Below, piece by piece: positions 7,178 through 36,512 of a DNA stretch of 64,000 nucleotides. This DNA comes from Candidatus Limnocylindrales bacterium (GTDB taxonomy: Bacteria > Chloroflexota > Limnocylindria > Limnocylindrales > CSP1-4): positions 6,234 to 70,233 of the forward strand of contig JBCLDE010000001.1 of assembly GCA_038915165.1 (NCBI GenBank). Direction: 5' to 3'. How positions within the stretch are numbered: position 1 is the stretch's first letter; each line of letters begins with the position of its first letter. Both the position numbers and the translations under genes were made by a program. The notes under the pieces were generated by a model that made no database searches, was not told the origin of the DNA, and saw only the letters and a list, made by a program, of their open reading frames with translations.

Positions 7178-7224
7178 CCTGCGTATCCGGAGGCGGGACC
7201 CGGCAGGCCCGGGCTCGGACGACC

Positions 7225-8744: not shown

Positions 8745-8874
8745 TCCGCGACACCCGTCAGCCATCTCCGGGGCAGGCGATCGCGGCCAAAGCCCGTAGC
8801 AAGCCCAGATCGACCTCGCCTGCCCGTCCCGCCACACCCCGGACTTCCGGGGCGCGCCGTCATAAGAGGCCCGG

Positions 8875-11163: not shown

Positions 11164-11176
11164 CCGGCCGGCGTCC

Positions 11177-11896
11177 GTGATCCCGCTTCGGGATGCCAAT
11201 CCGACGCGCCGGACACCGCTGGTCACGCTGGCCATCGCCGTCGCGTGCTTCGTCGCCTTTGCCTGGGAACTCGGCCTGCTGGCCAGTGGCGGCGAGGTCG
11301 CGCTGGACGCCTTCGTGACGAGCTGGGGCGTCGTGCCGGCCGACCTGACCGCCGCCTGGTCGCGCGGCGACGTCCTGTCGCGTGAGACCGCCACGCTCAT
11401 CGCCAGCCAGTTCCTCCACGGCAGCTGGCTGCATCTGCTCGGCAACATGCTCTATCTGTGGATCTTCGGCAACAACGTCGAGGACCGGCTGGGCCGCGTG
11501 GTCTTTGTGGCGTTCTACCTGACCGGTGGAGTGCTGGCCGGTTTGAGCCAGGTCGCCATCGATCCGTCGTCGTCGGTCCCGACGATCGGCGCCTCCGGGG
11601 CGATCGCGGCAACCCTCGGGGCGTACCTCGTGCTCTTTCCGCGAGCACGGATCACCTCGCTCGTCTTCCTCGGGTTCTTCTACCAGCTCATCAACGTCCC
11701 GGCGATCATCGTCCTCGGTTTCTGGTTCGTCCTGCAGGTCGTCGATGGCATCGCCTCGCTCGGCGTGACGACGGTCGGTGGTGTCGCCGTCTTCGCCCAC
11801 ATCGGCGGTTTCGTGGCGGGGGCGCTGGCGGCCCGGCTGCTGTTCGTCCGTGCCGGGCGGCGCGGGCGGTCGACGGCCCCGCCTGCCGTGGGATAA
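11177..11896 (+). CDS. rhomboid family intramembrane serine protease
   Basis: FLHGSWLHLLGNMLYLWIFGNNVEDRLG, the catalytic-Ser motif GASGAIAATLGAY and the His motif FAHIGGFVAGAL are all present. Confidence 0.85.
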   Translation: MIPLRDANPTRRTPLVTLAIAVACFVAFAWELGLLASGGEVALDAFVTSWGVVPADLTAAWSRGDVLSRETATLIASQFLHGSWLHLLGNMLYLWIFGNNVEDRLGRVVFVAFYLTGGVLAGLSQVAIDPSSSVPTIGASGAIAATLGAYLVLFPRARITSLVFLGFFYQLINVPAIIVLGFWFVLQVVDGIASLGVTTVGGVAVFAHIGGFVAGALAARLLFVRAGRRGRSTAPPAVG

Positions 11897-11903
11897 TCGC
11901 CGC

Positions 11904-12458
11904 ATGGACGACGGGCTGGTCGAAATGGTCGTCGAGAGCGTCCGGGTCCACATGCTCTCCAGCCGCCACGTGGTCATCCTCAAGGAGGCGGCCCGCGATC
12001 GTTACCTGCCGATCTGGATCGGCCCGTGGGAGGCGAGCGCGATCGCGATGAAACTGCAGGGCCTGACCCCTCAGCGGCCGCTTACCCACGACCTGTTCGC
12101 GACGATGCTGAATGAGCTGGGCGCTCGTATCCTCCGGGTCGTCATCACCGAGCTGGCCGACGAGACGTTCCATGCCAGGATCCTGCTCGAACGGGATGGC
12201 CGGATCATCGAGGTCGACGCCCGACCCTCCGACGCCCTCGCCCTGGCCGTTCGCTCCGATGTCAAGATCTTCGCTGCGAGCGCGGTCCTGGAGCAGGTCG
12301 CGTTAGGCGGCAACGCCGATCTCGGGGGCGCGGAGGGCGGCCTTGGATCGACCCATGAGGCGACCGGCGAGCAGCTCGTCGACCCACGCCTGGACGTCTT
12401 CCGCGATTTCGTGAATTCGCTCGATGCCGACGCTGAGGGCGGCAGCCGCTCCAGTTAG
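11904..12458 (+). CDS. bifunctional nuclease (BFN/DUF151) family protein
   Basis: The product reads MDDGLVEMVVESVRVHMLSSRHVVILKEAARDRYLPIWIGPWEASAIAMKLQGLTPQRPLTHDLF...VDARPSDALALAVRSDVKIFA, a strong BFN pattern. Confidence 0.8.
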   Translation: MDDGLVEMVVESVRVHMLSSRHVVILKEAARDRYLPIWIGPWEASAIAMKLQGLTPQRPLTHDLFATMLNELGARILRVVITELADETFHARILLERDGRIIEVDARPSDALALAVRSDVKIFAASAVLEQVALGGNADLGGAEGGLGSTHEATGEQLVDPRLDVFRDFVNSLDADAEGGSRSS

Positions 12459-13231
12459 ATGGCCGGTGGCGCTGCCGGGCCCAGGATCGGCGCCCCGCGG
12501 CGCAACGCCCGGGCCTTGTTGACCCACATGTGCAGGCGGAGTCGCCAGAAATCGCGCACCGCGTGGAGGATGACGATGGGCTTCGCCCCGGTGGCCGATC
12601 CGGCCGTGCGCGGGTAGTGAGGGACGCCAACCTCGGCCACGGAACGCCCGGCCGCCTGTAGCTTGATGAGCAGCTCGGCGGAGAAGAAGGCGCCCTGCGA
12701 CTCGATCGCGATCCCTTCGAGCGCCTCCCGGCGGAAGAGCTTGCAGGCGCCGTCGACATCGGTCACCCTCAGGCCGAAGAAGATGCGATTGGCCAGCCGG
12801 TACGCGCGGGCGTAGACAGTCCGCAGGAGTGGATCGGCACGCTTGATCCGGAGACCCGCCACGACGTCGGGTGCGTCCGGCGCAGCCAGGCGGGCCGTCA
12901 GGCGGCCGATGTCGACGACCCGGAACTGGCGGTCGCCGTCGGTGAAGGCGATGAGCTCGTAGCGGGCGGCCCCGAACCCCGACAGCAGTGCGGCCCCGTA
13001 GCCGCGGTTGACCGGGTGATGGACGACGCGCACGACGTCCGGGTGGCGGGCGGCGAGCGCGTCGGCGAGATCCGGCGTCCCGTCGCGGGAGCCGTCGTCG
13101 ACGGCGATGATCTCGAACGTATGGGCCAGGCTCGGCAGCGTGGCGAGGGCCTCATCGACCAGCGCTTCGAGGTTGGCCTCCTCGTCATGTGCCGGGAAGA
13201 AATAGGAGAGACGGGCCACCCGGTCGGGCAT
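12455..13231 (-). CDS. GT2 family polyprenol-phosphate sugar synthase (Ppm1/DPM1-like; start ATG 13231, the longer track ORF is rejected)
   Basis: The product reads LSYFFPAHDEEANLEALVDEAL...EIIAVDDGSRDGT...HPVNRGYGAALLSGF...IAFTDGDRQF...GACKLFRREAL, with a GT-A DxD-type core. It is adjacent to GT-C enzymes that would use a lipid-linked donor. Confidence 0.8.
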   Translation of the reverse strand: MPDRVARLSYFFPAHDEEANLEALVDEALATLPSLAHTFEIIAVDDGSRDGTPDLADALAARHPDVVRVVHHPVNRGYGAALLSGFGAARYELIAFTDGDRQFRVVDIGRLTARLAAPDAPDVVAGLRIKRADPLLRTVYARAYRLANRIFFGLRVTDVDGACKLFRREALEGIAIESQGAFFSAELLIKLQAAGRSVAEVGVPHYPRTAGSATGAKPIVILHAVRDFWRLRLHMWVNKARALRRGAPILGPAAPPAI

Positions 13232-13345: not shown

Positions 13346-14863
13346 ATGGAACGCGGCGCGGACACCGCCGGCCGGTTCAACCGGACTGCTCCCTGGCTCG
13401 TCGCCGGCTTCGCGTTCGTCATCTACGTCCGCACGCTCCTGCCGTCGGTCGCGTTCGGCGACTGGGGCGAGATGCAGACGGTCCCGCACGTCCTGGGAAT
13501 CGCCCATCCTACCGGCTACCCGACGTACGTGATGCTCGCGTGGCTGGCGGAGCTTGCACCTATCGGCTCGGTGGCGTTCCGGGCGAACCTGCTCTCGGCG
13601 GTCTTCGTGGCTGGGGCGCTGGCCACGTTCACGCTCATCTGCCTGCGCCTTGGCGTCCGACCGGTCCTGGCCATCGCGGCAGGGCTGGTCCTGGGCGTGG
13701 TCGGGACGGTCTGGGCGGCGGCGACGGTCGCCGAGGTGAACTCGCTCCACCTGCTGTTCGCCGCGCTCATCCTTCACCGAGCGCTCGTATGGGATGCCCG
13801 GCGGTCGCCGTCCGACTTGGCGCTGGGTGGGTTGCTCATAGGCCTCTCGGTCGGCAACCACCTGCTCACGCTGTTCATAGCGCCGCTTGTCGCGCTCCAC
13901 GTCCTGTGGGTCGGGCGGCGCGAGATCCGGGCACGGCCGTGGATCCTCGCCCTGCCGGTCTCCGGCGCCCTGGTCGGGCTCCTCGTCTACCTGTATATCC
14001 CGATCGCGGCGAGCTTCTCGCCGCCGCTCGGCTACAACCACCCGGTCACACTGGACGGCTTCTTCCTCGTGACGGGGGAGCAGTTCCGAGGCCAGTTCGA
14101 TTTCCTGTCGGCCGCGGGGCCGAGCGAGTTCGTGCGCTACCTGCCGGACCTGTGGGGCGTTCTCGTGTCGCGGGGCACGGCGGTCATGCCGGTCCTGGGC
14201 TTCGCCGGGCTGCTTGTGCTCGTGCTCCGGCGACCCGCGTTCGGGCTGTTGTGCTCGGCCGTGCTCGTCACCGGGCTTTACCTCTGGGCAAACTACCTGC
14301 GGCTTGAGCACTACCTGCTCGTGCCGTGGCTGCTGCTCGCGATCGGGATGGCGGTCGCGCGCGTGCTCGATGGCGCCATCGCGCGCGTGGTCGGGCGTGC
14401 TGGCGGCGGCCTTGCGGCGTCAGTCGCAGCCCTCGCCCTCGTCGTTGGCGTGCTGAACTGGCCCGCCTCCGACCGCAGTGGCGACCGATCCGCAAGCGAG
14501 TACGCCGACGCGGTCTTCTCGGCGCTCCCGCAGAACGCCGCGATCCTCGTCTGGTGGGACGCAGCGTCGCCGCTGTGGTACGGCCGTTATATCGAGGGGC
14601 GTCGGCCGGACGTGCTCATCGTGGACGACACGAATATCGTGTATGAGGGGTGGGGCACGCGGGAGGCTCGGATCGCATCGCTGATCTGCCAGCGACCGGT
14701 CTATATCATCCGGCCCGCCGACGTCGAACTGATCCCGACGGCCGCGAGGTACCGGCTCGAACCGATCCTCACGGTCTCGGTGGCGATCGGGACCCCCACC
14801 GCCGGCGAAACCCGGCGGATCTATCGCGTGCATGCTCTCGATTCGAAGGCCTGCGGCGGGTAG
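13346..14863 (+). CDS. DUF2723 / TMEM260-like GT-C membrane glycosyltransferase
   Basis: The N-terminal motif is YVRTLLPSVAFGDWGEMQTVPHVLGIAHPTGYPTYVML. It is followed by many TM helices and a soluble C-terminal domain. Confidence 0.7.
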   Translation: MERGADTAGRFNRTAPWLVAGFAFVIYVRTLLPSVAFGDWGEMQTVPHVLGIAHPTGYPTYVMLAWLAELAPIGSVAFRANLLSAVFVAGALATFTLICLRLGVRPVLAIAAGLVLGVVGTVWAAATVAEVNSLHLLFAALILHRALVWDARRSPSDLALGGLLIGLSVGNHLLTLFIAPLVALHVLWVGRREIRARPWILALPVSGALVGLLVYLYIPIAASFSPPLGYNHPVTLDGFFLVTGEQFRGQFDFLSAAGPSEFVRYLPDLWGVLVSRGTAVMPVLGFAGLLVLVLRRPAFGLLCSAVLVTGLYLWANYLRLEHYLLVPWLLLAIGMAVARVLDGAIARVVGRAGGGLAASVAALALVVGVLNWPASDRSGDRSASEYADAVFSALPQNAAILVWWDAASPLWYGRYIEGRRPDVLIVDDTNIVYEGWGTREARIASLICQRPVYIIRPADVELIPTAARYRLEPILTVSVAIGTPTAGETRRIYRVHALDSKACGG

Positions 14864-14899: not shown

Positions 14900-16336
14900 T
14901 CACCATCCCAGCAACCGACTCCACAGCACCCCCCACAGGTTGATCGCGACCGACAGCACGATGAGGCCGATAGCGAGCGGCATGCCCCACGAGCGCCGGT
15001 CGGCGAGCCGCTGGAACCCGAGCGCGACCAGGAGCAGGGCGAACGGCGCCGCGTCGTTGCTGAACCGATACCCGAATTGGACCCAGCCCTGGCTGAAGTG
15101 CATGAGGTTGACGAACGCGATGGCCACGACCGCCACGGTCGCACCGCTCACCAGGCGACCGCGGCCATAGCGGCCGAGGACCACGATCGCGAGCAGGTAG
15201 GCCGGGCTCGTCAGGATGACGCTCATCCCGGTGTCGCGCGGGACGGCGAGCGGGCAGGCCAGGTCGAATAGGCTACGGACGGCCCCCGGCTCCGTACACA
15301 CGGGTTGCGGGGCGATGGCCAGGCTGTCCGGCAGGGCGGCCGGGAAGATGTCGGGCAACCCGAACAGCGCGATGCCGAGGTTCTGGGGCAGGTAGCGCGG
15401 GTCCTCCACCGCCCAATCCGGATGGTAGCCGAGGCTGGGGTAGCCGTAGCTTTCCAGCTGGTAGAGGTAGTCGTAGGCCGGATGGAAGACGTGGCCGGTC
15501 GTCACCACGTTGTAGGCGATCAAGGCGAGGACCGGCAGTGCCGCCCCGAGGCCGGCTGACCAGGTCCGCCGACGCCAGTCGCCACCGCCCCCGACGAGCG
15601 CGAAGAACGGTGCCCCGAAGATAACGGTCAAGCGGGCGGTGCAGGCCAGCCCGAACAGGAACCCGGCCACGAACTGGCGCGGATCGACCGCCAGCCTGCC
15701 GCCGAGGCGCCGACCAGCACGACCGGCGGCGGACTCCGGGTCGGCGCCGAGGGCGATCCCGATGGCCAGGAAGGTCAGCCCCACGGCCGCGATGTGGGCC
15801 TGGTACCAGGTCGTCGAGAGCTGGGCGCTATACCAGAAGACGGTGCCGAAGGCGAAGAACAGGGTGGTGCACAGCCGGACCGCCGGCCGCACCGGGAGGC
15901 GACCCAGCACCCACCAGCAGAGCGCGACGTCAGTCGCGGCCAGGATGGTGAAGATGGTCTGATCGTCCGTGGCGAGGCCCCACAAGGCCACGAACGGGAG
16001 AAGCACGATGGCGGGCAGCGGCGGGAAGGGGAGCAGGCCACGCGGCACGCCGTTCGCCTTCACGATCGGCAGGACGTCCTGGAAATAGTCGTTCCCGGGC
16101 GCTCCGCCGACGCTGAGGACCGGGTAGCGGATCGCGGCTTGACCCTCGAGGAACGCGGCCGCCTGCCAGACGAAGTGGTCGTAATAGCGGTCCGCCGCGG
16201 TCGCCAGGTACACGGCCGATGACCCGAACACGAGTAACAGCCCGACCACGATGGCCAGCCCTCGGGCGTAGCGCGCGTCGGGCCAGGATGCCGTGTCGGG
16301 GTCTGCCAGGCGACCCTGTGCTACGCTCCGATCCAC
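14900..16336 (-). CDS. polytopic GT-C fold glycosyltransferase (ArnT/PMT-like); start uncertain (ORF to 16495, GTG at 16336)
   Basis: The protein has about 11 hydrophobic segments. The periplasmic-loop-like motif is DRYYDHFVWQAAAFLEGQAAIRYPV...GLLPFPPLPAIVLLPFVALWG. It sits inside the glycosyltransferase cluster. Confidence 0.55.
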   Translation of the reverse strand: MDRSVAQGRLADPDTASWPDARYARGLAIVVGLLLVFGSSAVYLATAADRYYDHFVWQAAAFLEGQAAIRYPVLSVGGAPGNDYFQDVLPIVKANGVPRGLLPFPPLPAIVLLPFVALWGLATDDQTIFTILAATDVALCWWVLGRLPVRPAVRLCTTLFFAFGTVFWYSAQLSTTWYQAHIAAVGLTFLAIGIALGADPESAAGRAGRRLGGRLAVDPRQFVAGFLFGLACTARLTVIFGAPFFALVGGGGDWRRRTWSAGLGAALPVLALIAYNVVTTGHVFHPAYDYLYQLESYGYPSLGYHPDWAVEDPRYLPQNLGIALFGLPDIFPAALPDSLAIAPQPVCTEPGAVRSLFDLACPLAVPRDTGMSVILTSPAYLLAIVVLGRYGRGRLVSGATVAVVAIAFVNLMHFSQGWVQFGYRFSNDAAPFALLLVALGFQRLADRRSWGMPLAIGLIVLSVAINLWGVLWSRLLGW

Positions 16337-16367
16337 CTTTCCACGCTCGTGCAGGAGCCGATTCCCG

Positions 16368-19300
16368 GTGACTGGCCCCGCATCAGGTGGGACCGAGCAA
16401 GGCACACGAGCGCCGTCGCGGCTGACCGGGACGCAGGGAGCCGTCGGCGCGGTCCTCGTGGTCCTCGCGCTCGGTCTCGCCCTTCGATTCATCATCGCAT
16501 ACCTGCTGCCAGGGTCTGGATTCGGAGTGGATCTGGGCGCGTTCCGGTTCTGGGCGCACGACCTCGCGACGAACGGCCCAGCGGGCTTCTACGAGCGAGA
16601 CTTCTTCCACGACTACACGCCCGGCTACCTCTACGTCCTGTGGCTGGTCGGCATCGTCGGCAACGTCGTGGGTGGCGTCGGCGACCTCATCAAGGTGCCG
16701 GCGATCCTGGCCGACCTGGCCATCGGCTGGCTGGTCTGGTCGATGATCCTGGAGCTCGGAGGTCGCCGCAGCCTGGCGCTTGGGGCCGCTCTCGTCGCGG
16801 TCGCGAACCCGATCAGCTGGTTCGACAGCGTCGTCTGGGGCCAGGTCGATTCGGTGGGCGTCGTCTTCCTGCTGCTCGGCCTCCGCGAACTCTGGCGCGA
16901 CCGCCCGGAGAGGGCCGCGATCTTCACCGTGATCGCCGCCCTGATCAAGCCGCAACTCGGGATCCTCATCCCGATCCTCGCGCTGGTGACGATCCGCCGC
17001 GCGTTCTGGCCCGTCCGCGATCCGGTGGTCGCGATCCAGCCCGAGTCGACCGCGGTCGCCGGCATCTGGGCCCGCTTCCTCGCCTGGGAGCGCCGGACGG
17101 ACCACCCGTTCCGGATCGTCACGACCGGACTGGTGGCCCTGCTCACGACCGTCCTGCTGTGCCTGCCGTTCGGGCTCTCCGTCCTGGAGTTCAGCCCCGA
17201 GGCGCCGTACCTTAAGTCCGGCCTGATCGCCCAGATCTTCGCCACGGCGTCCGGCTATCCGTATCTGACGGTCAACGCCTTCAACCCTTGGGCCCTCCTT
17301 GCGGGCGACACGGGCTACAGCCTCGCCAACGCCGGACTGTGGGTCTGCGACGGTCCATGGGGGCCCGACAAGTGCGGCTCGGGGGTCGCGTTCCTCGGCA
17401 CCATCCCGGCGGTCCTGGTCGGGAGCCTGCTGATGATGATCGTGACGGTCGTCATCTCGTTCGTGGCCGCGCGGCGCCCGGACCGCCTCACGATCCTCCT
17501 CAGCCTGACCCTGCTCGCACTGGCCTTCTACGTCGTTCCCACCCGCGTCCACGAGCGCTACGCCTACCCGTTCTTCGCGCTTGCGATCATGCTCGCGGTC
17601 ATCGCCTGCCGCTGGCGGATGGCCTATCTCGTCCTGTCAGTGACGATCCTGCTGAACATGTACGCGGTCCTGACAAACCCGTTCTACGCGAACCCGGGAA
17701 TCAGCGACTGGCTTGGCATCGGACCGCTGATCCGGTCTGAACCGGGCGTCGCGGTCATCGCGCTGATCAATGGCGCGGTCTTCCTGTGGGCATTCGCCCA
17801 GCTTCGTGCCGGGGCGCGCAACAGTTTGGCGAAGGGCCTGGCAACCGAGGAGGCGCGCGCACTGGCGGAGGACGAGCCGCTTGCCCATCGCGCCGGCGTT
17901 GTGCGCGACCCCCCACCGCCTTCTCCGGCCGTTCGTGAGGCGACCGCGGCGGCGGCAGACGATCACGGGAGCGCCACGGCTGGATCGACCGGTCCCGCGA
18001 TCACCGCGATCACCGCGGCGCTCCCGACCTGGACGCCGCGCCCCACCTACGCGGAGATCGGTGTCCTCGGCTGGTTCAAGGCACGCCTGCGCGAGGCGCC
18101 CATCCGGCCGGACCGCAGCGCAGCGCTTCGATCCGAACGTCGCGGCCGTCTCGATCGGCTCGACCTATGGCTCCTCGTCGTGCTCGTCGTCGCGGCGATG
18201 TTCCTGCGCACCTTCCGGCTGGCCGAGCCGCACCAGATGCACTTCGACGAGGTCTACCACGCCCGGACTGCGACCGAGTTCCTGCAGGCCTGGCGCTACG
18301 GCCTGTCGCACGACATCTACGAGTGGACCCATCCGCATCTCGCCAAGTACGCGATGGCCGGTGGCCTGGTCCTGTGGGGCCAGGATCAGGCTAAAGCCAC
18401 CAGCGACCTCGGCGTCTCGGTCAAGGCGTCCGTCGTCGAACCGCGCCGGGACGACCCGCTCTCGCCCGGAGGCCGAAGCGGCGAGCGGCTGCACGTCGCT
18501 ACCGGCTCTGAGGTCCGGACCTACGACCTGCGCACGCGGCGGCTCGTCTCGGTCGTGCAGGCTGCGGGAGCGTCTGCGCTGGCGATCGACAAAACCGGCA
18601 ACCGGCTCATCGTCGGGAACGAGGCGGGCCAGATCTCGACCATCGATCTGTCCGTGCTGGGGAGCGCCGGCGTCGATCCGGGCGGCGAGGCGTTCCCGTT
18701 GGCGACCGTCGACCACCCGGTCGCGAACCTGCTGGTGACCGCTGACGGCGCTTCCATCGTGGCGGCCTCAGCCGACCGCCTGTCAGTCGTGGATCTGGCC
18801 ACGGGCGACGTTCGAGGCAGTCTGGCCCTGCCCGGCATCGCCGACCTGGCGCCCGGCGGCAGTGGTTCTGCGCTGGTGGCAAGGGTCGACGAGGCCAGCG
18901 ATCCGGCGGCGCTCGCCAGCACCCTGGCGGAGCTGTTGTCGGGGGACGCGTCCGACTATGAGGCGCGTCTCGCCAAGGGATCGCCGGGCAGCACCGTCGT
19001 CCTCGGCAGCCCTGGGACCGGCGACGCGCGCAAGGCCCTCGACACGGCGCTCGCCGATGGCCGCCTGCCGGGCGTCAGCATCGACGACGTCGCCCGGGTG
19101 GCCGTCGCGACCAGCGAAGGTGTCACGTTCATCGATCCGGCCCGCGTTTCGAAGGTCAGCACCACCACGCTCAGTGGCGGCGCCCACGGCCTGGCGTTCG
19201 TCACCGGCCTCGCCGACCCCAGGCTCTACGTCACGACCGGCGCGGACTCGGATCCCGGGTACCAGGTCATCGCGGTCGGGGGCGACAGCGCCAAGGCCGG

Positions 19301-21797
19301 GCCGGCGGACCTTGGTCGGCACCCGCTCCCGGCGCCTGGCACCCGGGTCGTCTACGATCGGGCCAGCCAGCAGATCCACATCCTGGGGCTTGTGCCGGGC
19401 AGCTTGTCCGCGTCGCCGTCGGGCACGACGACAGCGCCTGGCTGGACCGTCTACGTCGTGGAACCGCACGGCAACGCCGTCTACGCTGACGCCCGCCTGC
19501 CCGACGGATTCGTGCCCAGCGCCTGGGCCGCGGACATCGAACCGGACTATCCGGCCGAGGATCGCCAGCGGCTGCTGGTCTTCGCGGGGGGTGGCGCATC
19601 GGCCTCGATCGACGTCGGGTCCCATGCCTTCGCGTGGCGGCTCCCCGGCGTCATCGCCGGTGCTCTGACGGCCGGGCTGCTCTACCTGCTCGCCCGGATC
19701 CTCTTCCGGCGCCGCCTGGTGGCCGGCCTGTTGGCGCTCTTCGTCCTCGCCGACGGGATGTTCTTCGTCCAGTCGCGGATCGGTATGAACGACGTCTACG
19801 TCGGGCTGTTCATCGTCGCCGCATACACGCTGTTCGCCGCTCTGTGGACGGGCTGGTGGCGGGGACGGGCCGCCTTCTGGCTGGCGATGCCGGTGATCGG
19901 CGTGCTGCTGGGCCTCGCCCTGGCCAGCAAGTGGGTGGCGGCCTACGCCATCGGCGCGCTCGTCCTGTTGATCCTGGTCCGCAGCGCGCTCGGACGGGTC
20001 CTGTCGATCATCGGCCTCATCGGTATCACCGGCGTCCTAGGCTACATGGCCATCAGCGTCCCGGAAGGGTCGGGGTTCGGGAACTTCACGTTCCTGCTTA
20101 TCATGGTCGCGCTCACCCTGATCGCCGTCGTCGTCGCGGTCGTCCACCCGATCGCCTGGACCGACGAGGAACTCCGCTTCGCGGTCGGCGCCCCGGTCGT
20201 CCTCGGGACGCTGGTCTTCTTCGGTGCCCTCGCTGCCGGCCGGCTCGACACCTCGATCGTGCTTGGGCCCGTCGCCGTCACGCCGCTGCTCGTGGCGATC
20301 GCCCTGGCCAGCGGGTCGCTCATCGTGGCCGGGCTGTTCTGGCTGGGCGGTCGGTTCGGCTTCGGGCCGCTGGCTGCGCCGCCCGGTCCCGACGATCCGA
20401 TGCGCCTGCTGGAGGCCCCCGGCGAGCCACCCGAGGGCTGGCTCCGGCCGGGCTGGCAGCTGGGCCTGCCGGTCGTGTTCGCTGCGCTGTGCCTCGTGGC
20501 GATCCCGATCGCCGTCTACGTCGCCACCTATATCCCGTGGGCGATGATCGAGAATCATCAGCTCGTGCCCGGCTGGCCGGTCGGCCACACCGGCCAGACC
20601 CTGGCTGACCTGACCGCCCAGATGTACCGCTACCACACCGGCCTGACCGCGGCCCACCCGGCGTCATCGCCCTGGTGGGCGTGGCCGCTGAACCTCAAGC
20701 CCGTCTGGTTCCATCAGGAGTCGCTCGGGGGCGGGACGACGGCCGCCCTGTACGACGCGGGCAACCTGGTCATCTGGTGGCTGGGCATCCCGGCCATGGC
20801 CTTCGTCGCGTGGATGGCGTTCAAGCGCCGGAGCCTTGCCCTGACCCTCATCGCGGTCGGTTTCGCGGCCCAATGGATCCCTTGGGCGCGGATCGATCGA
20901 GCGGCCTTCCAGTACCACTACTACACGGCTCTGCCGTTCGTGGTCCTGTCCCTTGCCTACTTCGCCGCCGAGCTGTGGCACGGCGCGTCCCGCCACACGT
21001 GGCAGTTGGCGCGCCTGGCCGGCGCGGCCGCGATCGTGGCCCCGGCCATCATGTGGCTACTGGACCGGCCGCTCTGCGCGTTCGTCGGGGTCGAGTCGGT
21101 CAATCCGGGTTCTCAGGCCTGTCCGGCCGTGATCCCGCAGTTCGTCCTGACCGCACGGTCCGCCGGGCTGGTCGGCGTCCTGGGGGTGGGCCTCGTCGTC
21201 ATCGTGCTGCGCTTTCTGGCGTTCGATTCGCGTGACCGTCATGCGACCGGCCGGAACCAGCTGACCGACGCGTTCCGCTCGCTGATCGGGACCGGCCTCG
21301 TCGTGGTCGCGGCGCTCGTCGTCGTGGCCTTCCTGCCCGACACGCCGATCCTCACCCTCACCAACGTGTCGGTGGAACCGATCGCGTTCCTCGGGGCCAT
21401 CCCGCTCGGCTATCTCGCGCTGCAGGTCATCGGCTCGCGCGACGCCCGCCGGTTCACGGTCGGCCTTGTCGTGGCCGCGGTCGGCTGGTTTGCCATCCTC
21501 TACCCGAATATCAGCGCTCTGCCGCTGCCGTCCGCCGTCGTCAACGCCTACCAGGGCATCCTGCCGACCCACCTGTACGCGTTCCAGTTCCCGATCAGCA
21601 CGGTCGATCGAAACAAGGAGATGCCGCTCCTGACGCCGATGCTGGGCGTCCTGCTTCTCGCGCTCGTCGCGACCTGCCTGGTCGTCGCCTACTCAGCCTG
21701 GGTCTGGCGACTGACGCTTGCCGAAGAGGCCGCCGCGGCGAGGGCCTCCGCGGCGTCGGACGAGACCGAGGGCCTGGCCCGGACCGGCGGCGCCTGA
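16368..21797 (+). CDS. giant (~1810-1834 aa) fusion of two GT-C glycosyltransferase modules; the second is PMT/GT39-like with a ~410-aa YVTN-beta-propeller-like insertion. Start uncertain (ORF from 16293)
   Basis: Module 1 (~16425..17800) carries FYERDFFHDYTPGYLYVLW...SVVWGQVDSVGVVFLLLGL...LIKPQLGILIP (Gpi18/ALG-like). An Ala/Pro linker follows. Module 2 begins near 18160 with HFDEVYHARTATEFL...YEWTHPHLAKY, with the DE motif at 18246..18251. The insert spans 18380..19620 (GAHGLAFVTGLADPRLYVTTG). The PMT core then resumes (AWRLPGVIAGAL...SRIGMNDVYV) and ends in a PMT C-terminal-like region (AAHPASSPWWAWPLNLKPVWF...AFQYHYYTALPF). Confidence 0.7.
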   Translation: MTGPASGGTEQGTRAPSRLTGTQGAVGAVLVVLALGLALRFIIAYLLPGSGFGVDLGAFRFWAHDLATNGPAGFYERDFFHDYTPGYLYVLWLVGIVGNVVGGVGDLIKVPAILADLAIGWLVWSMILELGGRRSLALGAALVAVANPISWFDSVVWGQVDSVGVVFLLLGLRELWRDRPERAAIFTVIAALIKPQLGILIPILALVTIRRAFWPVRDPVVAIQPESTAVAGIWARFLAWERRTDHPFRIVTTGLVALLTTVLLCLPFGLSVLEFSPEAPYLKSGLIAQIFATASGYPYLTVNAFNPWALLAGDTGYSLANAGLWVCDGPWGPDKCGSGVAFLGTIPAVLVGSLLMMIVTVVISFVAARRPDRLTILLSLTLLALAFYVVPTRVHERYAYPFFALAIMLAVIACRWRMAYLVLSVTILLNMYAVLTNPFYANPGISDWLGIGPLIRSEPGVAVIALINGAVFLWAFAQLRAGARNSLAKGLATEEARALAEDEPLAHRAGVVRDPPPPSPAVREATAAAADDHGSATAGSTGPAITAITAALPTWTPRPTYAEIGVLGWFKARLREAPIRPDRSAALRSERRGRLDRLDLWLLVVLVVAAMFLRTFRLAEPHQMHFDEVYHARTATEFLQAWRYGLSHDIYEWTHPHLAKYAMAGGLVLWGQDQAKATSDLGVSVKASVVEPRRDDPLSPGGRSGERLHVATGSEVRTYDLRTRRLVSVVQAAGASALAIDKTGNRLIVGNEAGQISTIDLSVLGSAGVDPGGEAFPLATVDHPVANLLVTADGASIVAASADRLSVVDLATGDVRGSLALPGIADLAPGGSGSALVARVDEASDPAALASTLAELLSGDASDYEARLAKGSPGSTVVLGSPGTGDARKALDTALADGRLPGVSIDDVARVAVATSEGVTFIDPARVSKVSTTTLSGGAHGLAFVTGLADPRLYVTTGADSDPGYQVIAVGGDSAKAGPADLGRHPLPAPGTRVVYDRASQQIHILGLVPGSLSASPSGTTTAPGWTVYVVEPHGNAVYADARLPDGFVPSAWAADIEPDYPAEDRQRLLVFAGGGASASIDVGSHAFAWRLPGVIAGALTAGLLYLLARILFRRRLVAGLLALFVLADGMFFVQSRIGMNDVYVGLFIVAAYTLFAALWTGWWRGRAAFWLAMPVIGVLLGLALASKWVAAYAIGALVLLILVRSALGRVLSIIGLIGITGVLGYMAISVPEGSGFGNFTFLLIMVALTLIAVVVAVVHPIAWTDEELRFAVGAPVVLGTLVFFGALAAGRLDTSIVLGPVAVTPLLVAIALASGSLIVAGLFWLGGRFGFGPLAAPPGPDDPMRLLEAPGEPPEGWLRPGWQLGLPVVFAALCLVAIPIAVYVATYIPWAMIENHQLVPGWPVGHTGQTLADLTAQMYRYHTGLTAAHPASSPWWAWPLNLKPVWFHQESLGGGTTAALYDAGNLVIWWLGIPAMAFVAWMAFKRRSLALTLIAVGFAAQWIPWARIDRAAFQYHYYTALPFVVLSLAYFAAELWHGASRHTWQLARLAGAAAIVAPAIMWLLDRPLCAFVGVESVNPGSQACPAVIPQFVLTARSAGLVGVLGVGLVVIVLRFLAFDSRDRHATGRNQLTDAFRSLIGTGLVVVAALVVVAFLPDTPILTLTNVSVEPIAFLGAIPLGYLALQVIGSRDARRFTVGLVVAAVGWFAILYPNISALPLPSAVVNAYQGILPTHLYAFQFPISTVDRNKEMPLLTPMLGVLLLALVATCLVVAYSAWVWRLTLAEEAAAARASAASDETEGLARTGGA

Positions 21798-22948
21798 GGG
21801 ATCGGCGCCCGGAAGTCGGTCGGCAGCGAACCGCTGGCGGCCAGCCGCCGGATGACGAAGCCGTAGTAGTCCTCCACCCTGGCGGTGACGCGCGGCCAGC
21901 TGAAGTCCTCGGCCCGAGCCCGTCCGGCCTCGCTCATCCTCGCCCGCAGCTCGGGCTCGGAGAGGAGGCGGCCGATCGCCTGGGCCAGCTCCTTGGGCTT
22001 GCGAGGCGGGACGAGCAGGCCTTCGCGACCGCGCCGGACGACCCCCTTGTAGCCGTGGATGTCCGAAGCCACGATGGGCGCTCCGGCGGCCATCGCCTCC
22101 AGCAGGACGATGCCGAACGATTCGCCACCGGTAGCCGGCGACGTGAACACATCGGCCGTCCGAAACAGCTGCGCTTTCTCCGCATCGGAGACCCGGCCAA
22201 GGAATTCGACCGCCTGGAGGCCGCGTGTCGCCACGTAGCGGCGCGCCTCGCGCTCCTGCGGCCCCGAACCAACGACCAGGAGCCGGTTGCCGTAGCCGGT
22301 CTTGCGCAGGATCCGATGCGCCTTCAGCAGGTCAAGCAGCCCCTTGCGCGGCTCGTGCCTGCCGACGAAGAGGACGTTCGGGGTGCCATCCTGCCAGCGC
22401 GCCACCGGGACCGCGCCGGCGAATCGCGGGATGTCGACGCCGTTGGGGATGACCTTGTAGTCGCCCGGAAAGAAGCGGTCGATGAAGTGGCGGGCCGCGG
22501 CGCTGACGGCGATCCGGCCGTGCAGTCGGGCAGCGTGGCCTCGCATCACGCGGCTGCCGATCTCGTAGGACGGGGAGAAGCCCGCGTAGGCATGGAACGT
22601 GGCGATGTTGACGCTGCGCGATTCGCGCAGCAGGAAGAGGGACAGGAACGGCACGAACGGCTCGTGGAAGTGGAGCACGTCGAAGCGCTCGCGGGCGATC
22701 ACGGCGCGGACCTGGCTGATGTAGCGCGGCGAGAACGTGAGCGTCCCGACGGAGCCGTTGGTCGGCATGCTGAAGCCGACGCCGATGCGCAGGACGTCGC
22801 CCTCGGAGGCGCGCTGCGGGCCGTGGCTGGCGGTGATGATCCGGACGTCATGGCCACGCAACCGCAGGTTCGCGTACAGGAACTGGATGTGCTGGGCGAC
22901 CCCGCCCGACTCGGGGTAGATGTACGGGCAGACCAGACCGATCTTCAT
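21689..22948 (-). CDS. pimA: GT4 glycosyltransferase, PimA-like (phosphatidylinositol alpha-mannosyltransferase type)
   Basis: The product reads MKIGLVCPYIYPESGGV...PTNGSVGTL...FDVLHFHEPFVP...ATFHAY...GRIAVSAAA...IPNGVDI...FVGRHEPRKG...GGESFGIVLLEAMAAGAPIVASD. This tracks mycobacterial PimA block by block. The ATGA overlap with the upstream PHP gene lies at 22945..22948. Confidence 0.8.
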   Translation of the reverse strand: MKIGLVCPYIYPESGGVAQHIQFLYANLRLRGHDVRIITASHGPQRASEGDVLRIGVGFSMPTNGSVGTLTFSPRYISQVRAVIARERFDVLHFHEPFVPFLSLFLLRESRSVNIATFHAYAGFSPSYEIGSRVMRGHAARLHGRIAVSAAARHFIDRFFPGDYKVIPNGVDIPRFAGAVPVARWQDGTPNVLFVGRHEPRKGLLDLLKAHRILRKTGYGNRLLVVGSGPQEREARRYVATRGLQAVEFLGRVSDAEKAQLFRTADVFTSPATGGESFGIVLLEAMAAGAPIVASDIHGYKGVVRRGREGLLVPPRKPKELAQAIGRLLSEPELRARMSEAGRARAEDFSWPRVTARVEDYYGFVIRRLAASGSLPTDFRAPIPQAPPVRARPSVSSDAAEALAAAASSASVSRQTQAE

Positions 22949-23790
22949 CGGGGTCCGCGCTCGCCGGAATCGAAGCGCGGCGGCCGTAGCCGTCCACCCG
23001 GATAGCCGTGGTCGCGGCCCGTGCCGTCGCGGCGCAGGCGACCAGCCACCTCCGCGCGGGCGTCTCGGCCTCGCTTGCGCAGCTGCTGGCCGAACGTGCC
23101 GAGCTGGCCGGCCAGCTCGTGGAACGAGCCGCCGTGATCGGTCGTGCGCCCGACGATGGCCCGGTGGAGGTCCGCCGCGTCGCTCCCCGGGAAGGTCGTC
23201 CAGCCAGTCCCGATGGCGTCGAGGGTATGCGCATCGCTGTTGCCCAGGCGAGCCAGACCGTGGACATCGGCGAACTGGACGACGCGGCGATGCCAGGGCC
23301 GCCCGAGGGCCGTCGGGTTGAACGTTTCGAGGCCGTCGGGGTGGACCGCCGGGTTCGGGTCGTCCAGGAGTCGACGCAGGACCCAACCCTGGGCGCACAG
23401 CGGGAACGGAACGAGCGGATGGGCCGGGATGGCCAGGCCGCCGGCGTCGTGGACCGCGAGGATCGTCTCGCGCAGCGAGCGCAGCGGACGGATGGGCCGC
23501 TCCACGAAGAGCGCCAGGAGGTGCCCGCCGAGCGTGGTGACCTCCTCGCCCACGACGACCTCGACACGCAGGCCGCGGTCGCGTGCCATGGATCGAGCCG
23601 CGAGCGCGGCATCGACCCGTCCGTGGTCCGCGATGGCGATGATGTTGAGGTCGGTCCGTCCCTCGACGTGGGTCAGGATGGCGTCGATGCTCGCGGTCCC
23701 ATCGCTGGCGAGCGTATGGATGTGGAGATCGGCACGGCCGCGTCGCTCGACGCCATCCGCCATGCCTTGGTGGGCCACCGGCTGCGTCAT
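22945..23790 (-). CDS. PHP-domain metal-dependent phosphoesterase
   Basis: RADLHIHTLASDGTASI (HxH motif), IIAIADHG, AIPAHP and LGNSDAHTL are typical PHP metal ligands. The gene is coupled by ATGA overlaps on both sides (23787..23790, 22945..22948). Confidence 0.8.
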   Translation of the reverse strand: MTQPVAHQGMADGVERRGRADLHIHTLASDGTASIDAILTHVEGRTDLNIIAIADHGRVDAALAARSMARDRGLRVEVVVGEEVTTLGGHLLALFVERPIRPLRSLRETILAVHDAGGLAIPAHPLVPFPLCAQGWVLRRLLDDPNPAVHPDGLETFNPTALGRPWHRRVVQFADVHGLARLGNSDAHTLDAIGTGWTTFPGSDAADLHRAIVGRTTDHGGSFHELAGQLGTFGQQLRKRGRDARAEVAGRLRRDGTGRDHGYPGGRLRPPRFDSGERGPR

Positions 23791-24785
23791 GCCGCGGCCT
23801 CCTGTTTGGCCCCGGCCTCCCGTGCTGCGTCGGCCTCGAGGTCCGGCCAGATCGGGAAGAAGACGGCCCACCATTGCTCCGGAGCGTCGGCGATGAGCTC
23901 CTCGAAGGCGGCGGCCAGGGCGGTCATCGTCGACGTGACACGCTCCCGTCGTGAGCCGTCTGCGGGGACGTCGATCGGGATGAGGCGGGCGCGGAAGCGG
24001 CCCTTGCCGGCGCGCCGGACGCCCATCGCGTAGGTCGGCACGCCACTTTCGACAGCGAGCATGGCGGGCCCCATGGGCAGCACGGACGGAGCGCCGAAGA
24101 GCGGGATGGGTGTTCCGCCGCCGGTCAGGTCCCGGTCGCCGACGAGGCCGACCGGGATGCCCTCGCGGAGTGCGGTCAGCAGGGCGCGACGCGCCTTGCG
24201 CAGGCCGACGAGGCGGATCCCGGCCACGCCGCGCGTCCGCTCGAAGTAGGCCTGCAGGCCCGGGTCGTCGATGGTCTCCATCGGCGTCACCGTGCTCCCG
24301 ACCCGAAAGGCGAGGAAGACGACGGCCAGCTCGAGGGAGCCGAAGTGCAGGCCGACGAACAGGACGGCCTTGCCCGGCACGACGGCCTGGGCGATGAGTT
24401 CCGGCGTATCGAGGATCAGTCGCTCGTCCACGAATCCGCGGGTGACTGCCGGCGTTCGGGCGACCTCGATGTAGTAGCGAGCGGCATGCCGGTAGGCGCT
24501 GCGGACCAGTCGCTCCAGGGCGACAGGGTCCGTGGCGGCCGCGCGAACGGCCGGGCTGCCACGCCCCGAGGCGTGCAGCGACTGGGCAACCCGGCGGAGG
24601 TTGCGGCGGGCCTGGGCCGCGCGGTCCGGGGTCGTCCGGTGCCACAGGTCGCCGGCCAGTTCGGCGGCTCGGAAGAGCGGGCCTTCCGGCAGTCGGCAAG
24701 CGAGCCAGGACGCCCCGATGAGCGCCCGGCCGCGAAGTCGCGAGCCGAGGCCCACGCGCCGGACGGTGTCGGCGCCGTCGCTCAC
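23787..24785 (-). CDS. lysophospholipid/lipid A-type acyltransferase (HtrB/LpxL family; PatA-like), copy 2
   Basis: It has the family layout: NLRRV...AYRHAARYYIEVAR...GKAVLFVGLHFGSLE...GLVGDRDLTGGG...FGAPSVLPMGPAMLA...PEQWW. The GTG start at 24785 overlaps the upstream stop (GTGA). Confidence 0.75.
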   Translation of the reverse strand: MSDGADTVRRVGLGSRLRGRALIGASWLACRLPEGPLFRAAELAGDLWHRTTPDRAAQARRNLRRVAQSLHASGRGSPAVRAAATDPVALERLVRSAYRHAARYYIEVARTPAVTRGFVDERLILDTPELIAQAVVPGKAVLFVGLHFGSLELAVVFLAFRVGSTVTPMETIDDPGLQAYFERTRGVAGIRLVGLRKARRALLTALREGIPVGLVGDRDLTGGGTPIPLFGAPSVLPMGPAMLAVESGVPTYAMGVRRAGKGRFRARLIPIDVPADGSRRERVTSTMTALAAAFEELIADAPEQWWAVFFPIWPDLEADAAREAGAKQEAAA

Positions 24786-25750
24786 GGGGCGTCGTCCACG
24801 TGTGTGCCGTGGCCGTCCTCGGATCCGAGCGCCGGGCCAGGGTCCCGCTGCCCGGCCTGCATCGTCCGTGCGCGCCGCTCGAGGTCCGCAGCCTCCTCGG
24901 CGGTCTCTGGCCAGATCGGCTTGAAGCTGTACCACTGCTCGGGGGCCGGCCGGATGGTGTCGGCCAGGGCGTCGGCGACCGCCTGGGTAGCCCGCTGGAG
25001 CTCAGCCGGATCCGAGGACGTGACTGTGATCGGATCCCCCCAGCCCACGTGGAGACGGCCGCCGGGCTGGCGGGTCGTCACGATCGGCAGGATGCGCGAG
25101 TGGGTCTTGGCCGCCAACGTCGCCGGTCCCGCGGGCAGCGTGGTCCATGCACCGAACAGCTGCACCGGGATGCCGTCACTGCGGTAGCCCCAGTCGACGA
25201 GAAGCCCCAGCATCTCGCGCCGTCGAAGGACCCCAAAGATCGCCCGCAGGTTGCGCCATGGGATGAGCGTCGCGTTCCACTGCTCGCGTTGGCGCTTGAG
25301 CAGGTCGAACAGTTCAGGGAACGATGAATCGTCAGCGACGACGCTGAGCGGCAGGCCGAGATCGGCGATCGCCGCCCCGATGACGTCGTTGTTGCCCACG
25401 TGGCCGACGGTCAGGATGAGTCCGCCATCCGATGATGCCCCCAGGATCCGCCGCGCCTCCGCACCATCGATGGGATCGACGAGTTTGACGATCTCGTCGG
25501 GCTGCATGAACGGCACACGCATGAGCTCGACGAGGTAGTCGCCATACGCTCGGTAGGCGCGCAGGGCCATGGCACGGACCCGGGGATCGCCCGGCGGCAG
25601 ACCCAGGACATGCCCGAAATTGCGGTTTGACCACGCACGTTTCGTCGGCCAGAGAAGATACGAGGCCTGGGCGCCAAGTCCCAACAGGGCTCCGGCCGGC
25701 CGAGCCGGCACGGTACGCAGGACCCATGCGGCGGCGCGGTAGGCCAGCAC
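24782..25750 (-). CDS. lysophospholipid/lipid A-type acyltransferase (HtrB/LpxL family; PatA-like), copy 1; start uncertain (GTG 25750)
   Basis: It has the same family layout: NFGHVLG...AYRAYGDYLVELMR...GGLILTVGHVGNNDV...GLLVDWGYRSDG...LFGAWTTLPAGPATLA...PEQWY. It is a paralog of the downstream gene. Confidence 0.7.
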   Translation of the reverse strand: MLAYRAAAWVLRTVPARPAGALLGLGAQASYLLWPTKRAWSNRNFGHVLGLPPGDPRVRAMALRAYRAYGDYLVELMRVPFMQPDEIVKLVDPIDGAEARRILGASSDGGLILTVGHVGNNDVIGAAIADLGLPLSVVADDSSFPELFDLLKRQREQWNATLIPWRNLRAIFGVLRRREMLGLLVDWGYRSDGIPVQLFGAWTTLPAGPATLAAKTHSRILPIVTTRQPGGRLHVGWGDPITVTSSDPAELQRATQAVADALADTIRPAPEQWYSFKPIWPETAEEAADLERRARTMQAGQRDPGPALGSEDGHGTHVDDAP

Positions 25751-25824
25751 GACGGACCGTTCCAGGATCCGTGATCGTGCCCCACCGCGCCGGTGCGGCG
25801 CCTCGAGTCGACGCTCGCTCGAGT

Positions 25825-27069
25825 TCACTTGGCGGCGGCTACCTTGGCCTTCGATCCGGCGAGCTTGCGCAGCGTGCGCTTGGGCGGTGCCTCCGTCCCG
25901 ACGAGGGTCTCGTTGTCTTCGCCCCGGATGAATGCCTCGACGCGGTTGAACGCGATGTCGTCGTGGATCTGGTGCGGCGGGCTCTTCATGAAGTAGCTCG
26001 ACGGGGCGACCAGCGTTCCGGCCAGGCCGCGGTCCAGGCCCAGCTTCAGGCAGCGGATGGCGTCGGTGATGACGCCGGCGCTGTTCGGGCTGTCCCAGAC
26101 CTCCAGCTTGAGCTCCACATTGAGCGGGACATCGCCGAAGGTCGTGCCCTCCATCCGGATGTAGCACCACTTGCGGTCCAGGAGCCACGGCACGTGGTCG
26201 CTTGGGCCGACATGGATGTCGTCGGGGTCGAGCTCATAGTCGAGCATGGACGTCACGGCGTTCGTCTTCGAGATCTTCTTCGACTCGAGGCGCTCGCGCT
26301 CCAGCATGTTGAGGAAGTCCGTGTTGCCGCCGAAGTTGAGCTGGTAGGTGCGGTCCAGGCGGACGCCGCGGTCCATGAACAGGCGAGTCAGGACGCGGTG
26401 GGTGATCGTTGCACCGACCTGGCTCTTGATGTCGTCGCCGATGACAGGCAGGCCGGCCTCTGCAAAGCGACGCTGCCAGTACGGCTCGCGACCGATGAAC
26501 ACCGGGATGGCGTTGATGAAGCCGACACCGGCTCGGAGCGCCTGCTCGACATACCACTTGGTCGCCTCTTCCGAACCGACTGGCAGGTACGAGACCATCA
26601 CATCGACTTCGCGCTCCTTGAGGATGCCCACGATGTCGGCCGTGGGGCCGGGCGCCTTCTCGATGATCTGGCTGAGGTACTTGCCCAGGCCGTCGTGGGT
26701 CATGCCGCGCTCGACGGTGACGCCGGTGTGGGCCACCTGCTGGAAGACGATCGTGTTGTTCGGCTTCGTGTAGATCGCCTCGGACAGGTCCTTGCCGACC
26801 TTGTTCTTGTCGATGTCGAACGCCGCCACGAACTCGATGTCGCGGACGTGGTATCCGCCCAGGTCGACATGCATCAGGCCCGGGACGAAGTCGTCCTTCT
26901 TGGCCTCCTCGTAGTAATAGCGACCCTGGACCAGACTGCTGGCGCAGTTGCCGACGCCGACGATCGCGACGCGGATCTTGCCGTCGCCACGGCGCCCGGC
27001 GCCCGCCCAGGTGTTGGTCGGCATCGCGCCGCTCTTGCCGCTCTTGCCGCTCTTGCCGTTGGTGCTCAC
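25825..27069 (-). CDS. ino1: myo-inositol-1-phosphate synthase (start GTG 27069 or ATG 27024)
   Basis: [60 protein letters not shown] and NILGNTDF-like [11 protein letters not shown] are all present. Confidence 0.9.
27028..27058. repeat. 9-bp tandem repeat gccgctctt x3 (+ partial) at the 5' end of ino1
   Basis: Read directly from the sequence. It encodes (GKS)3 if translation starts at GTG 27069. Otherwise it abuts ATG 27024 as 5' leader. Confidence 0.9.
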
Positions 27070-27085
27070 GTCGGTCTCTGTACTC

Positions 27086-27769: not shown

Positions 27770-27772
27770 CGG

Positions 27773-32586: not shown

Positions 32587-32654
32587 GTCCCGGAGCGTAC
32601 CAGTACCTGTGGCCGACGGCCTTCGCGTGCGGCCGCTGCTACGATGCCGCTCCC

Positions 32655-36504: not shown

Positions 36505-36512
36505 GTCCACGC

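Follow-up and report, generated by a model that had tools for sequence, protein, structure and literature searches.

A conserved Chloroflexota protein joining a GT87-like module, a PMT-type module and a beta-propeller in one chain: a candidate protein O-mannosylation enzyme

We analyzed a stretch of 64,000 nucleotides from Candidatus Limnocylindrales bacterium (Chloroflexota; assembly GCA_038915165.1, contig JBCLDE010000001.1, positions 6,234 to 70,233 of the forward strand), called the window below, and give all coordinates from its first nucleotide. The gene under study, at 16368..21797, encodes a single chain in which a GT39-type protein mannosyltransferase (PMT) module, a second glycosyltransferase module of GT-C fold resembling family GT87, and a beta-propeller are all present. 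We favor, at somewhat better than even confidence, the reading that it is a holoenzyme in one chain that O-glycosylates proteins, most likely with mannose. A preliminary description of the locus, drawn from its letters and a list of its open reading frames (ORFs), is taken up where our results bear on it.

Architecture and conservation of the protein

The features of the gene, with the evidence on which each was placed, are as follows (TM, transmembrane helix; GC3, GC content at third codon positions).

16368..21797 (+), whole gene, 1809 amino acids, GTG start, stop codon included; single ORF, single high-GC3 frame, full-length homologs
16419..17798 (+), module 1, residues 18-477, 12-helix GT-C of the GT87/PimE-ALG-PIG type; Pfam, AlphaFold, Foldseek
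16530..16532 (+), D55, at the N-terminal tip of helix 53-69 (juxtamembrane helix JM1), candidate catalytic base; conservation, position as PimE D58
16836..16853 (+), WGQVDS motif, residues 157-162; W157, Q159, and D161 invariant, numbering parallel to PimE D160/Q163
16947..16955 (+), K194-P-Q motif, candidate donor-phosphate ligand; K194 invariant, parallel to PimE K195
17538..17561 (+), PTRVHERY motif, residues 391-398; invariant across the family and split relatives
17799..18155 (+), predicted cytoplasmic linker, residues 478-596; amphipathic helix 481-502, disordered Ala/Pro-rich stretch, conserved Arg-rich segment before the next TM
18156..18215 (+), TM1 of the PMT module, residues 597-616; AlphaFold helix 3-22, model mcc50e7dd9e96
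18243..18299 (+), juxtamembrane helix 1 of loop 1 with the DE motif (D627 and E628, 18246-18251); model helix 32-50
18339..18377 (+), juxtamembrane helix 2 of loop 1, HPHLAKYAMAGGLVLW region, residues 658-670; model helix 64-76, 13 residues
18390..19613 (+), beta-propeller in loop 1, residues 675-1082, seven or eight blades; model and Foldseek
18903..19055 (+), three-helix sub-insertion in the propeller, residues ~846-896; model helices 252-263, 267-276, and 291-302
19626..21734 (+), PMT (GT39-type) membrane core and extra C-terminal helices, residues 1087-1789; Pfam, PDB, model

From its GTG at 16368 to the stop at 21795-21797 the gene is one ORF, open from stop to stop since 16272 and with its earliest possible start at 16293. 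GC3 lies between 0.80 and 0.97 in the same frame in every 300-nt block beyond the first, the Ala/Pro-rich linker included, and is 0.74 in the first block, which takes in 75 nt upstream of the start. With this steady level in a single frame, nothing points to a frameshift. A database search returned more than 120 full-length homologs (1750-1860 amino acids, 60-88% identity), and the N-terminus MTGPASGG common to them supports the start at 16368. In a scan of one genome per GTDB species with FDEVYHAR as the retrieval pattern, relatives were present in at least 591 genomes; the locus counts below refer to the best 80 of these. The 80 align over residues ~1-1809 at 48-71% identity, and their labels are nearly all Limnocylindria or other Chloroflexota, with three from other phyla. 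The ORF is uninterrupted over at least 1650 codons in 73 loci, cut by contig ends in three, and interrupted in four.

The single polypeptide of ~1800 residues in the preliminary description is thus borne out by the 1809 codons, the GC3 continuity, and the 73 intact loci. The contrary explanation, that two or three genes were merged through a frameshift, a lost stop codon, or a misassembly, could draw on the four interrupted loci and on the split forms that occur among more distant relatives. It is countered by the GC3 profile, by the single ORF of ~1800 codons in 73 independent genomes and in the metagenomic proteins, and by the conserved residues that the linker holds, and we consider its probability negligible. 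The architecture was also described as unusual. Its parts are real, two GT-C modules and a propeller; however, it is not rare: it is a core gene conserved throughout one class of bacteria, and Paenibacillus has been noted to have a GT39-GT87 fusion.

The interrupted orthologs (L037, L040, L065, and L076) have longest ORFs of 1365-1503 codons and could be long-read frameshifts in metagenome-assembled genomes or cases of recent pseudogenisation or splitting. Stop-to-stop frames of up to 2566 codons at some loci were rejected as added modules, as they are upstream read-through antisense to the neighbour.

Module 1 was placed at about 16425..17800 in the preliminary description, in close agreement with the helices found. 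Its nearest sequence family appears to be GT87/PimE, at a borderline score: the Pfam GT87 model (PF09594, the PimE family) gives E 3.9e-5 and 24.0 bits against a cut-off of 25, and among homologs one reaches 25.9 bits (P0117) and two others have no match. No sequence match to any PDB chain was obtained, even with a 40-sequence profile. The AlphaFold model of residues 1-561 (predicted local distance difference test score, pLDDT, 84.6; predicted TM-score, pTM, 0.85) has 12 membrane helices as well as juxtamembrane helices, and its best PDB folds in Foldseek are GPI-MT-I (9wno_A), ALG6 (6snh), PimE (9dm5), ALG3 (9s6r), and PIG-U. The PimE match has E 1.2e-4 and a TM-score of 0.57 normalised to PimE, while GPI-MT-I (0.66) and ALG6 (0.67) fit the fold as well or better. 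An earlier assignment as Gpi18/ALG-like therefore holds at the level of the fold. Membership in PIG-V/Gpi18 was ruled out, as the Pfam model (GT76, PF04188) had no match to module 1 at E up to 10; "Gpi18-like" is merely a JGI/COG label on some homologs.

In PimE, activity requires D58 (at the tip of JM1), Y62, Y92, Q163, K195, and W319, and D160, H321, and H322 contribute to it; mutating these residues abolishes or reduces activity (PMC12041525). Module 1 has candidate counterparts by position: D55 and K194 for D58 and K195, Q159 and D161 in the WGQVDS motif, Y87/Y89, and possibly the PTRVHERY motif for H321/H322. In the model K194 sits at a helix break (helices 180-193 and 195-213). Across 96 homologs D55, Y87, Q159, D161, K194, and H395 are invariant. 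D55 is also invariant in distant and split relatives, and the motifs around it, Q159/D161, K194, and H395 are kept there at 32% identity, with the WGQVDS motif retained as WGQxD/E apart from a single WAQ variant. The persistence of these PimE-like residues suggests that module 1 is an active enzyme.

Module 2 is, by its sequence matches, a GT39/PMT module, as had been described. Pfam PMT (PF02366) scores 42.9 bits against a cut-off of 22.7 over residues 1087-1204, a match limited to profile positions 82-198 because the insert splits the domain, and PMT_4TMC (PF16192) scores 50.7 bits against 32.4 over residues 1412-1558 (20601-21041; 53-65 bits in homologs). Its sole sequence relatives in the PDB are fungal Pmt4 structures (9e61/9i5k, E about 3e-4). 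The DE of HFDEVYH, read earlier at 18246..18251, is confirmed as D627/E628; FDEVYHAR, with the same D627 and E628 in all 96 sequences, and THPHLAKY are both invariant. The model of residues 595-1790, built from 96 aligned sequences (pLDDT 81.9, pTM 0.81), has the DE helix directly after TM1 and about 18 further helices beyond TM1. TM2 starts with W-R-L-P-G, and the PMT core resumes past the insert at AWRLPG (W1090 R1091), as the preliminary description had it. A block of extra PMT-core membrane helices (core-profile positions ~170-265, window ~20130-20420) is missing in several relatives.

The insert was first noticed as a ~410-residue propeller-like segment at about 18380-19620, and it is found at 18390-19613 as a confidently folded domain (pLDDT about 90, about 30 beta-strands), not a disordered one. 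Among the 50 best Foldseek matches listed, nearly all are beta-propellers or chains that contain one, and seven-bladed WD40 domains predominate (probability 1.0, E down to 5.5e-9, target-normalised TM-score up to 0.77). The list also includes BamB and a designed protein with eight blades, and the strand count fits either seven or eight blades. A profile search of the PDB gave weak WD40-type matches. No WD40 or YVTN repeat model in Pfam was significant (Beta-prop_THOC3 at E 0.051 and WD40 at E 0.16 were sub-threshold), so assignment of the insert to either family was rejected; of the YVTN-propeller-like strands seen earlier, the propeller stands at the level of fold, and YVTN is undetectable by Pfam. 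Searched against 1.84 billion representatives, the insert profile matched 511 clusters at 50% identity, and among the matches listed every protein of at least 700 amino acids has the same architecture. Few clusters, and one architecture among these listed proteins, indicate a private propeller family.

The sub-insertion of the propeller is missing in P0198, P0240, and P0254. This accessory and the extra PMT-core helices vary among relatives such as P0198, P0240, P0254, P0250, and P0261.

The linker has pLDDT below 60 beyond residue ~500 in the model of module 1, and W555, G565, W569, R580, D582, R594, and D596 are conserved. The last ~65-70 positions of its profile form the N-terminus of P0187 and P0138, PMT genes recorded as unfused. 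Arg-rich segments (GGRRS, RELWRDRPER, TIRRA, AARRPDR, RSERRGRLDR, and LFRRR) fall on one side of the membrane in the predicted topology and the conserved Cys pairs C327/C336 and C1570/C1585 on the other. From this sorting we infer that module 1 has both ends inside, that the linker of ~115 residues is cytoplasmic, and that both catalytic sites face outward. The whole chain would have about 31 membrane helices.

The insert had been placed after the second helix of the PMT module. The HPHLAKY helix preceding it, at 13 residues, is instead a juxtamembrane helix of loop 1, and the propeller comes before TM2. As this helix is too short to span the membrane, and Arg-rich segments lie before TM1 (RSERRGRLDR) and after TM2 (LFRRR), the insert, flanked by the HPHLAK helix and TM2, lies in loop 1, predicted to be extracytoplasmic. 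The propeller shares this loop with the catalytic DE and ends just before the TM2 arginine, R1091. The same place in yeast Pmt1 is presumably taken by a short connector between HPPLAK and the essential TM2 arginine.

A survey of homologs, as the preliminary description had proposed, found the fused state in most. Among 50%-identity representatives, most complete proteins are fused and 1674-1827 amino acids long, and some are longer. One of 2012 amino acids (P0254) has a third, C-terminal module (residues 1633-2003) homologous to the neighbour at 14900-16336 (-), with E 3e-23. Genuine split forms are P0190 and P0208. At two loci the split halves are adjacent overlapping genes in identical synteny: in L081 a 702-amino-acid homolog of module 1 (E 1e-48) overlaps a 1439-amino-acid PMT-plus-propeller gene by 11 nt, and L082 has a similar arrangement. 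Other apparently unfused representatives were set aside. The 90% clusters of P0138 and P0232 hold members of 1798 and 2127 amino acids, so these two gene calls are probably truncated, and P0128 looks frameshifted.

Genomic neighbourhood

The gene belongs to a glycosylation island that lies about 5-20 kb from dnaA. The following features surround it.

1172-2575 (-), yidC, of the replication-origin gene set
3560-5599, dnaA; 6044-7177, dnaN; 7132-8418, recF; replication-origin set
12455..13219 (-), GT2 glycosyltransferase like polyprenyl-phosphate-sugar synthases, candidate maker of the lipid-linked donor; Pfam Glycos_transf_2, E 1e-24
13346-14863 (+), TMEM260-like GT-C; Pfam, E 1e-21
14900..16336 (-), p531, GT-C-like membrane protein, likely functional partner; P0254 homology, NCBIfam, synteny; start codon uncertain
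21689-27772 (-), early phosphatidylinositol mannoside (PIM)-type operon of actinobacterial type: PimA-like, PatA-like, Ino1, PIP synthase
true start about 22948 (-, MKIGLVCPY), PimA-like GT4; PDB match to PimA at E 1e-60 over the full length, next-best 1e-20
23787-24935 (-), PatA-like acyltransferase; sole PDB matches PatA, E 1e-16
25825-27189 (-), myo-inositol-1-phosphate synthase (Ino1)
27086-27772 (-), phosphatidylinositol phosphate (PIP) synthase

Genes for a 765-amino-acid protein, a rhomboid protease, a bifunctional (BFN) nuclease, the GT2, the TMEM260-like GT-C, and the GT-C-like p531 precede the target in that order, and beyond it, convergent, lie those for the PimA-like GT4, the PatA-like acyltransferase, Ino1, and PIP synthase. 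This order is kept in most of the 80 loci and in split relatives. The linkage to the PimA/PatA/Ino1/PIP-synthase genes is present in about 54-71 of the 80, depending on the gene, and also in L081 and L082. The operon suggests phosphatidylinositol mannosides in Chloroflexota, a phylum in which our literature search on Chloroflexi and PIM found no report of them. In M. tuberculosis, Rv0051 and ino1 (Rv0046c) are likewise only a few genes apart and near oriC.

The 3' ends of the target and the PimA-like ORF overlap convergently by 109 nt (21689-21797), with high GC3 in both frames, an overlap that is absent in L081. At the other end, p531 as called (531 codons, 14900-16495) runs 128 nt past the start of the target gene; its true start codon therefore probably lies farther along p531 in its direction of reading, where window coordinates are smaller. 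It is a multi-pass protein with a weak NCBIfam match to the LA_3751/3752 putative glycosyltransferase family and is syntenic in 62 loci. A scan of the divergent start region between the target and p531 for promoters and terminators found none.

The GT2 may make the lipid-linked donor used by the island's four GT-C modules. Its best NCBIfam matches are PpgS, ArnC, PgfS, and a dolichyl-P-hexose transferase, none above its cut-off, and it occupies the same place in L081 and L082; the 618-amino-acid ORF listed for it is over-extended, antisense to the next gene. TMEM260 is a eukaryotic protein O-mannosyltransferase family. The TMEM260-like gene has its best match on the opposite strand in 62 related loci, at 28-43% identity against mostly 50-90% for the flanking genes, which reflects either a local inversion with fast divergence or replacement by a paralog.

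The 765-amino-acid protein, which has no family match, the rhomboid protease, and the bifunctional-nuclease-domain protein (8866-12458) always precede the island. Farther away, 32571-45733 holds a weak sortase-like ORF (32571-33389) followed by a run of complex I/Mrp-type antiporter subunits.

Comparison with known systems and proposed function

The closest parallel to the window protein is a mycobacterial complex described in a preprint of July 2026 (bioRxiv 10.64898/2026.07.15.738315) on the basis of AlphaFold 3 models, pull-downs, and phenotype correlation. There, the GT39 enzyme Pmt (Rv1002c) co-purifies with Rv0051, Rv3212, and Rv1209 in an M. smegmatis pull-down. Rv0051/ML2687c, a GT-C resembling GT87, is described as having no catalytic residues and a Pmt2-like role, Rv3212 is an eight-bladed periplasmic propeller placed in the AlphaFold 3 model directly above the DE site as an MIR-like gatekeeper, and Rv1209 is a DivIVA-like bridge. 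The shared elements are a GT39 with the DE motif, a GT87-type GT-C, and an extracytoplasmic propeller at the active-site loop of Pmt. The complex, from Actinomycetota, consists of four separate proteins, whereas the Chloroflexota version is a single chain; Rv3212 is anchored by a helix of its own, and the propeller here is built into loop 1. No DivIVA-like protein was identified in our system, and the linker may take the place of Rv1209.

The physical association of the three parts is guaranteed in a single-chain fusion, and their covalent joining is an independent argument that they work together. The same preprint notes that some Paenibacillus GT39 proteins are translationally fused to GT87 (UniProt V9WAU2); this case, known to us by description only, also has two GT-Cs of the same two families in one polypeptide. 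Our literature search found neither this family described nor any PMT with a propeller in one of its loops, and on GT39 together with GT87 it found nothing on the family besides the preprint.

The eukaryotic Pmt1-Pmt2 dimer (PDB 6P25) and Pmt4 homodimer (9e61, 9i5k) share with our protein the GT39 core, the DE in the first luminal loop, the PMT_4TMC domain, the pairing of GT-C subunits, and a soluble domain as cap, which here would likewise sit over the active site. They differ in that the partner is another GT39 and not of GT87 type, and in having 11 helices against about 19 in module 2. Their cap is an MIR beta-trefoil between TM7 and TM8, so the preliminary description was correct that MIR domains occupy a different loop. 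PimE (9DM5; PMC12041525) is like module 1 in its 12-helix GT-C fold, in having, by position, an Asp where JM1 begins, a Q/D motif near 160, and a Lys near 195, and, presumably, in the use of a polyprenyl-phosphate-sugar donor. Its sequence similarity is marginal (24 bits), and only module 1 is fused to a PMT.

Two further systems pair a GT-C with a soluble domain. TMTC1-4 and TMEM260 attach an extracytoplasmic or luminal repeat domain for acceptor selection to a GT-C core; that domain is helical, of tetratricopeptide-repeat type, and C-terminal, there is no second GT-C, and the TMEM260-like gene of our island is a separate neighbour. AftB and its propeller partner (ML1720 homolog) are another bacterial case of a GT-C dependent on a periplasmic propeller (bioRxiv 10.64898/2026.07.15.738315). 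In contrast to our protein, the propeller acts in trans, and AftB is an arabinosyltransferase of another GT family.

Based on these comparisons, we propose the following mechanism. The DE motif in loop 1 of module 2 would transfer a sugar from polyprenyl-phosphate-mannose to Ser or Thr of exported proteins. The propeller would cap the active site and select or hold the acceptor polypeptide, as proposed for Rv3212 in mycobacteria and MIR domains in eukaryotes. Module 1, tethered by the cytoplasmic linker, would stand in for the partner GT-C that is Rv0051 in mycobacteria and Pmt2 in yeast, and probably also extends the first mannose, because the catalytic residues of PimE appear to be kept. The GT2 and TMEM260-like genes in the same island support the proposal. 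"Substrate capture and sequential transfer" by one protein, as suggested in the preliminary description, would fit later literature on mycobacterial Pmt and PimE; a review states that the GT87 enzyme PimE elongates O-mannose chains. A bolder version, in which both modules are active, GT39 as initiator and GT87 as elongator, and, held next to each other in the membrane, form a natural O-mannosylation assembly line under a propeller that feeds them exported polypeptides, we regard as possible yet doubtful.

Several points weigh against this proposal. The acceptor, the sugar, and the activity assigned to the whole family are read from sequence and models. The position of the propeller over the DE site, which we consider likely, derives from the insertion point and the mycobacterial model, and the correspondence of module 1 to PimE residues uses position and motif, not superposition. 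The NCBIfam equivalog for Pmt (NF058602) scores 45 bits against a cut-off of 800, so module 2 and the characterised actinobacterial Pmt are not orthologs. The parallel with the mycobacterial complex is also imperfect: Rv3212 is eight-bladed and membrane-anchored in trans, and the insert, with seven or eight blades, was compared with it by description only, while Rv0051 is reported without catalytic residues and module 1 keeps candidates for them. Finally, the linkage to the genes for PimA, PatA, Ino1, and PIP synthase, found also in deeply diverged split relatives, fits a glycolipid role equally well.

It is this adjoining operon that makes glycolipid or lipoglycan elongation the main rival to a protein acceptor. 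An acylated phosphatidylinositol mannoside would be made inside, flipped, and extended by the GT-C modules with polyprenyl-phosphate-mannose, the GT87-type module acting like PimE or MptB and the PMT-like module's propeller holding the growing glycan. The PimA-like GT4 and PatA-like acyltransferase convergent with the gene, followed by Ino1 and PIP synthase, the conservation of this linkage in so many loci and in both split ones, and the affinity of module 1 to the PimE family, with structural neighbours that all act on phosphatidylinositol glycans or lipid-linked glycans, argue for it. Module 2, however, is above cut-off in both PMT-specific Pfam models, and GT39/PMT-type enzymes are not known to act on lipids. 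GT39, GT87-like GT-C, and propeller are moreover the exact composition of the protein-mannosylating complex of M. smegmatis, and synteny alone may reflect a shared mannose and envelope island near the origin; Rv0051, which lies only a few genes from ino1, nevertheless works with Pmt. On balance we consider a glycolipid acceptor unlikely. The sugar might also be a different one (glucose, GalNAc, or arabinose-type) and the acceptor another component of the envelope, for example an S-layer protein or wall polysaccharide, with the PMT and GT87 labels describing fold only. The GT2 matches polyprenyl-phosphate-sugar synthases of varied specificity, the family is far under the Pmt equivalog cut-off, and the Limnocylindria envelope is uncharacterised; yet the adjoining PimA and PatA and the GT39 and GT87 affinities point to mannose, which leaves this alternative very improbable.

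A remaining alternative accepts the mannosylating machine and denies sequential transfer: module 1 would be a non-catalytic scaffold or acceptor recruiter, like Rv0051 or yeast Pmt2. The preprint's description of Rv0051/ML2687c as a Pmt2-like GT87 is in its favor, as is the presence of PIG-U, a non-catalytic protein of GT-C fold, among the best structural matches of module 1. The invariance of D55, WGQxD, K194, and PTRxHERY across the family and in split relatives is unexpected for a mere scaffold, and we judge this possibility to be rather improbable. A loss of catalysis like that of Rv0051 is thus probably not the case for module 1.

Implications for bacterial protein mannosylation

On how bacterial Pmt picks the proteins it modifies, and on what it needs partners for, the 2026 preprint makes the sole proposal. 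The window protein is a cis "Rosetta-stone" version of the complex proposed there. The joining of the same three parts in one conserved protein, with the propeller in the catalytic loop, gives independent support for the mycobacterial architecture and extends it beyond Actinobacteria. The protein also offers one chain of ~200 kDa for electron cryomicroscopy and mutagenesis in place of a labile four-protein complex, and the retained PimE-type residues of module 1 make coupled initiation and elongation directly testable.

If the assembly line described above proves true, the complex of Pmt, GT87, and propeller would be ancient and shared across Terrabacteria, the fused protein would be an evolutionary Rosetta stone for it, and it would be embedded in an actinobacterial-type PIM island in Chloroflexota. 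The adjoining operon for PimA, PatA, Ino1, and PIP synthase, for its part, suggests that PIM-like lipids are present in these abundant freshwater and soil Chloroflexota.

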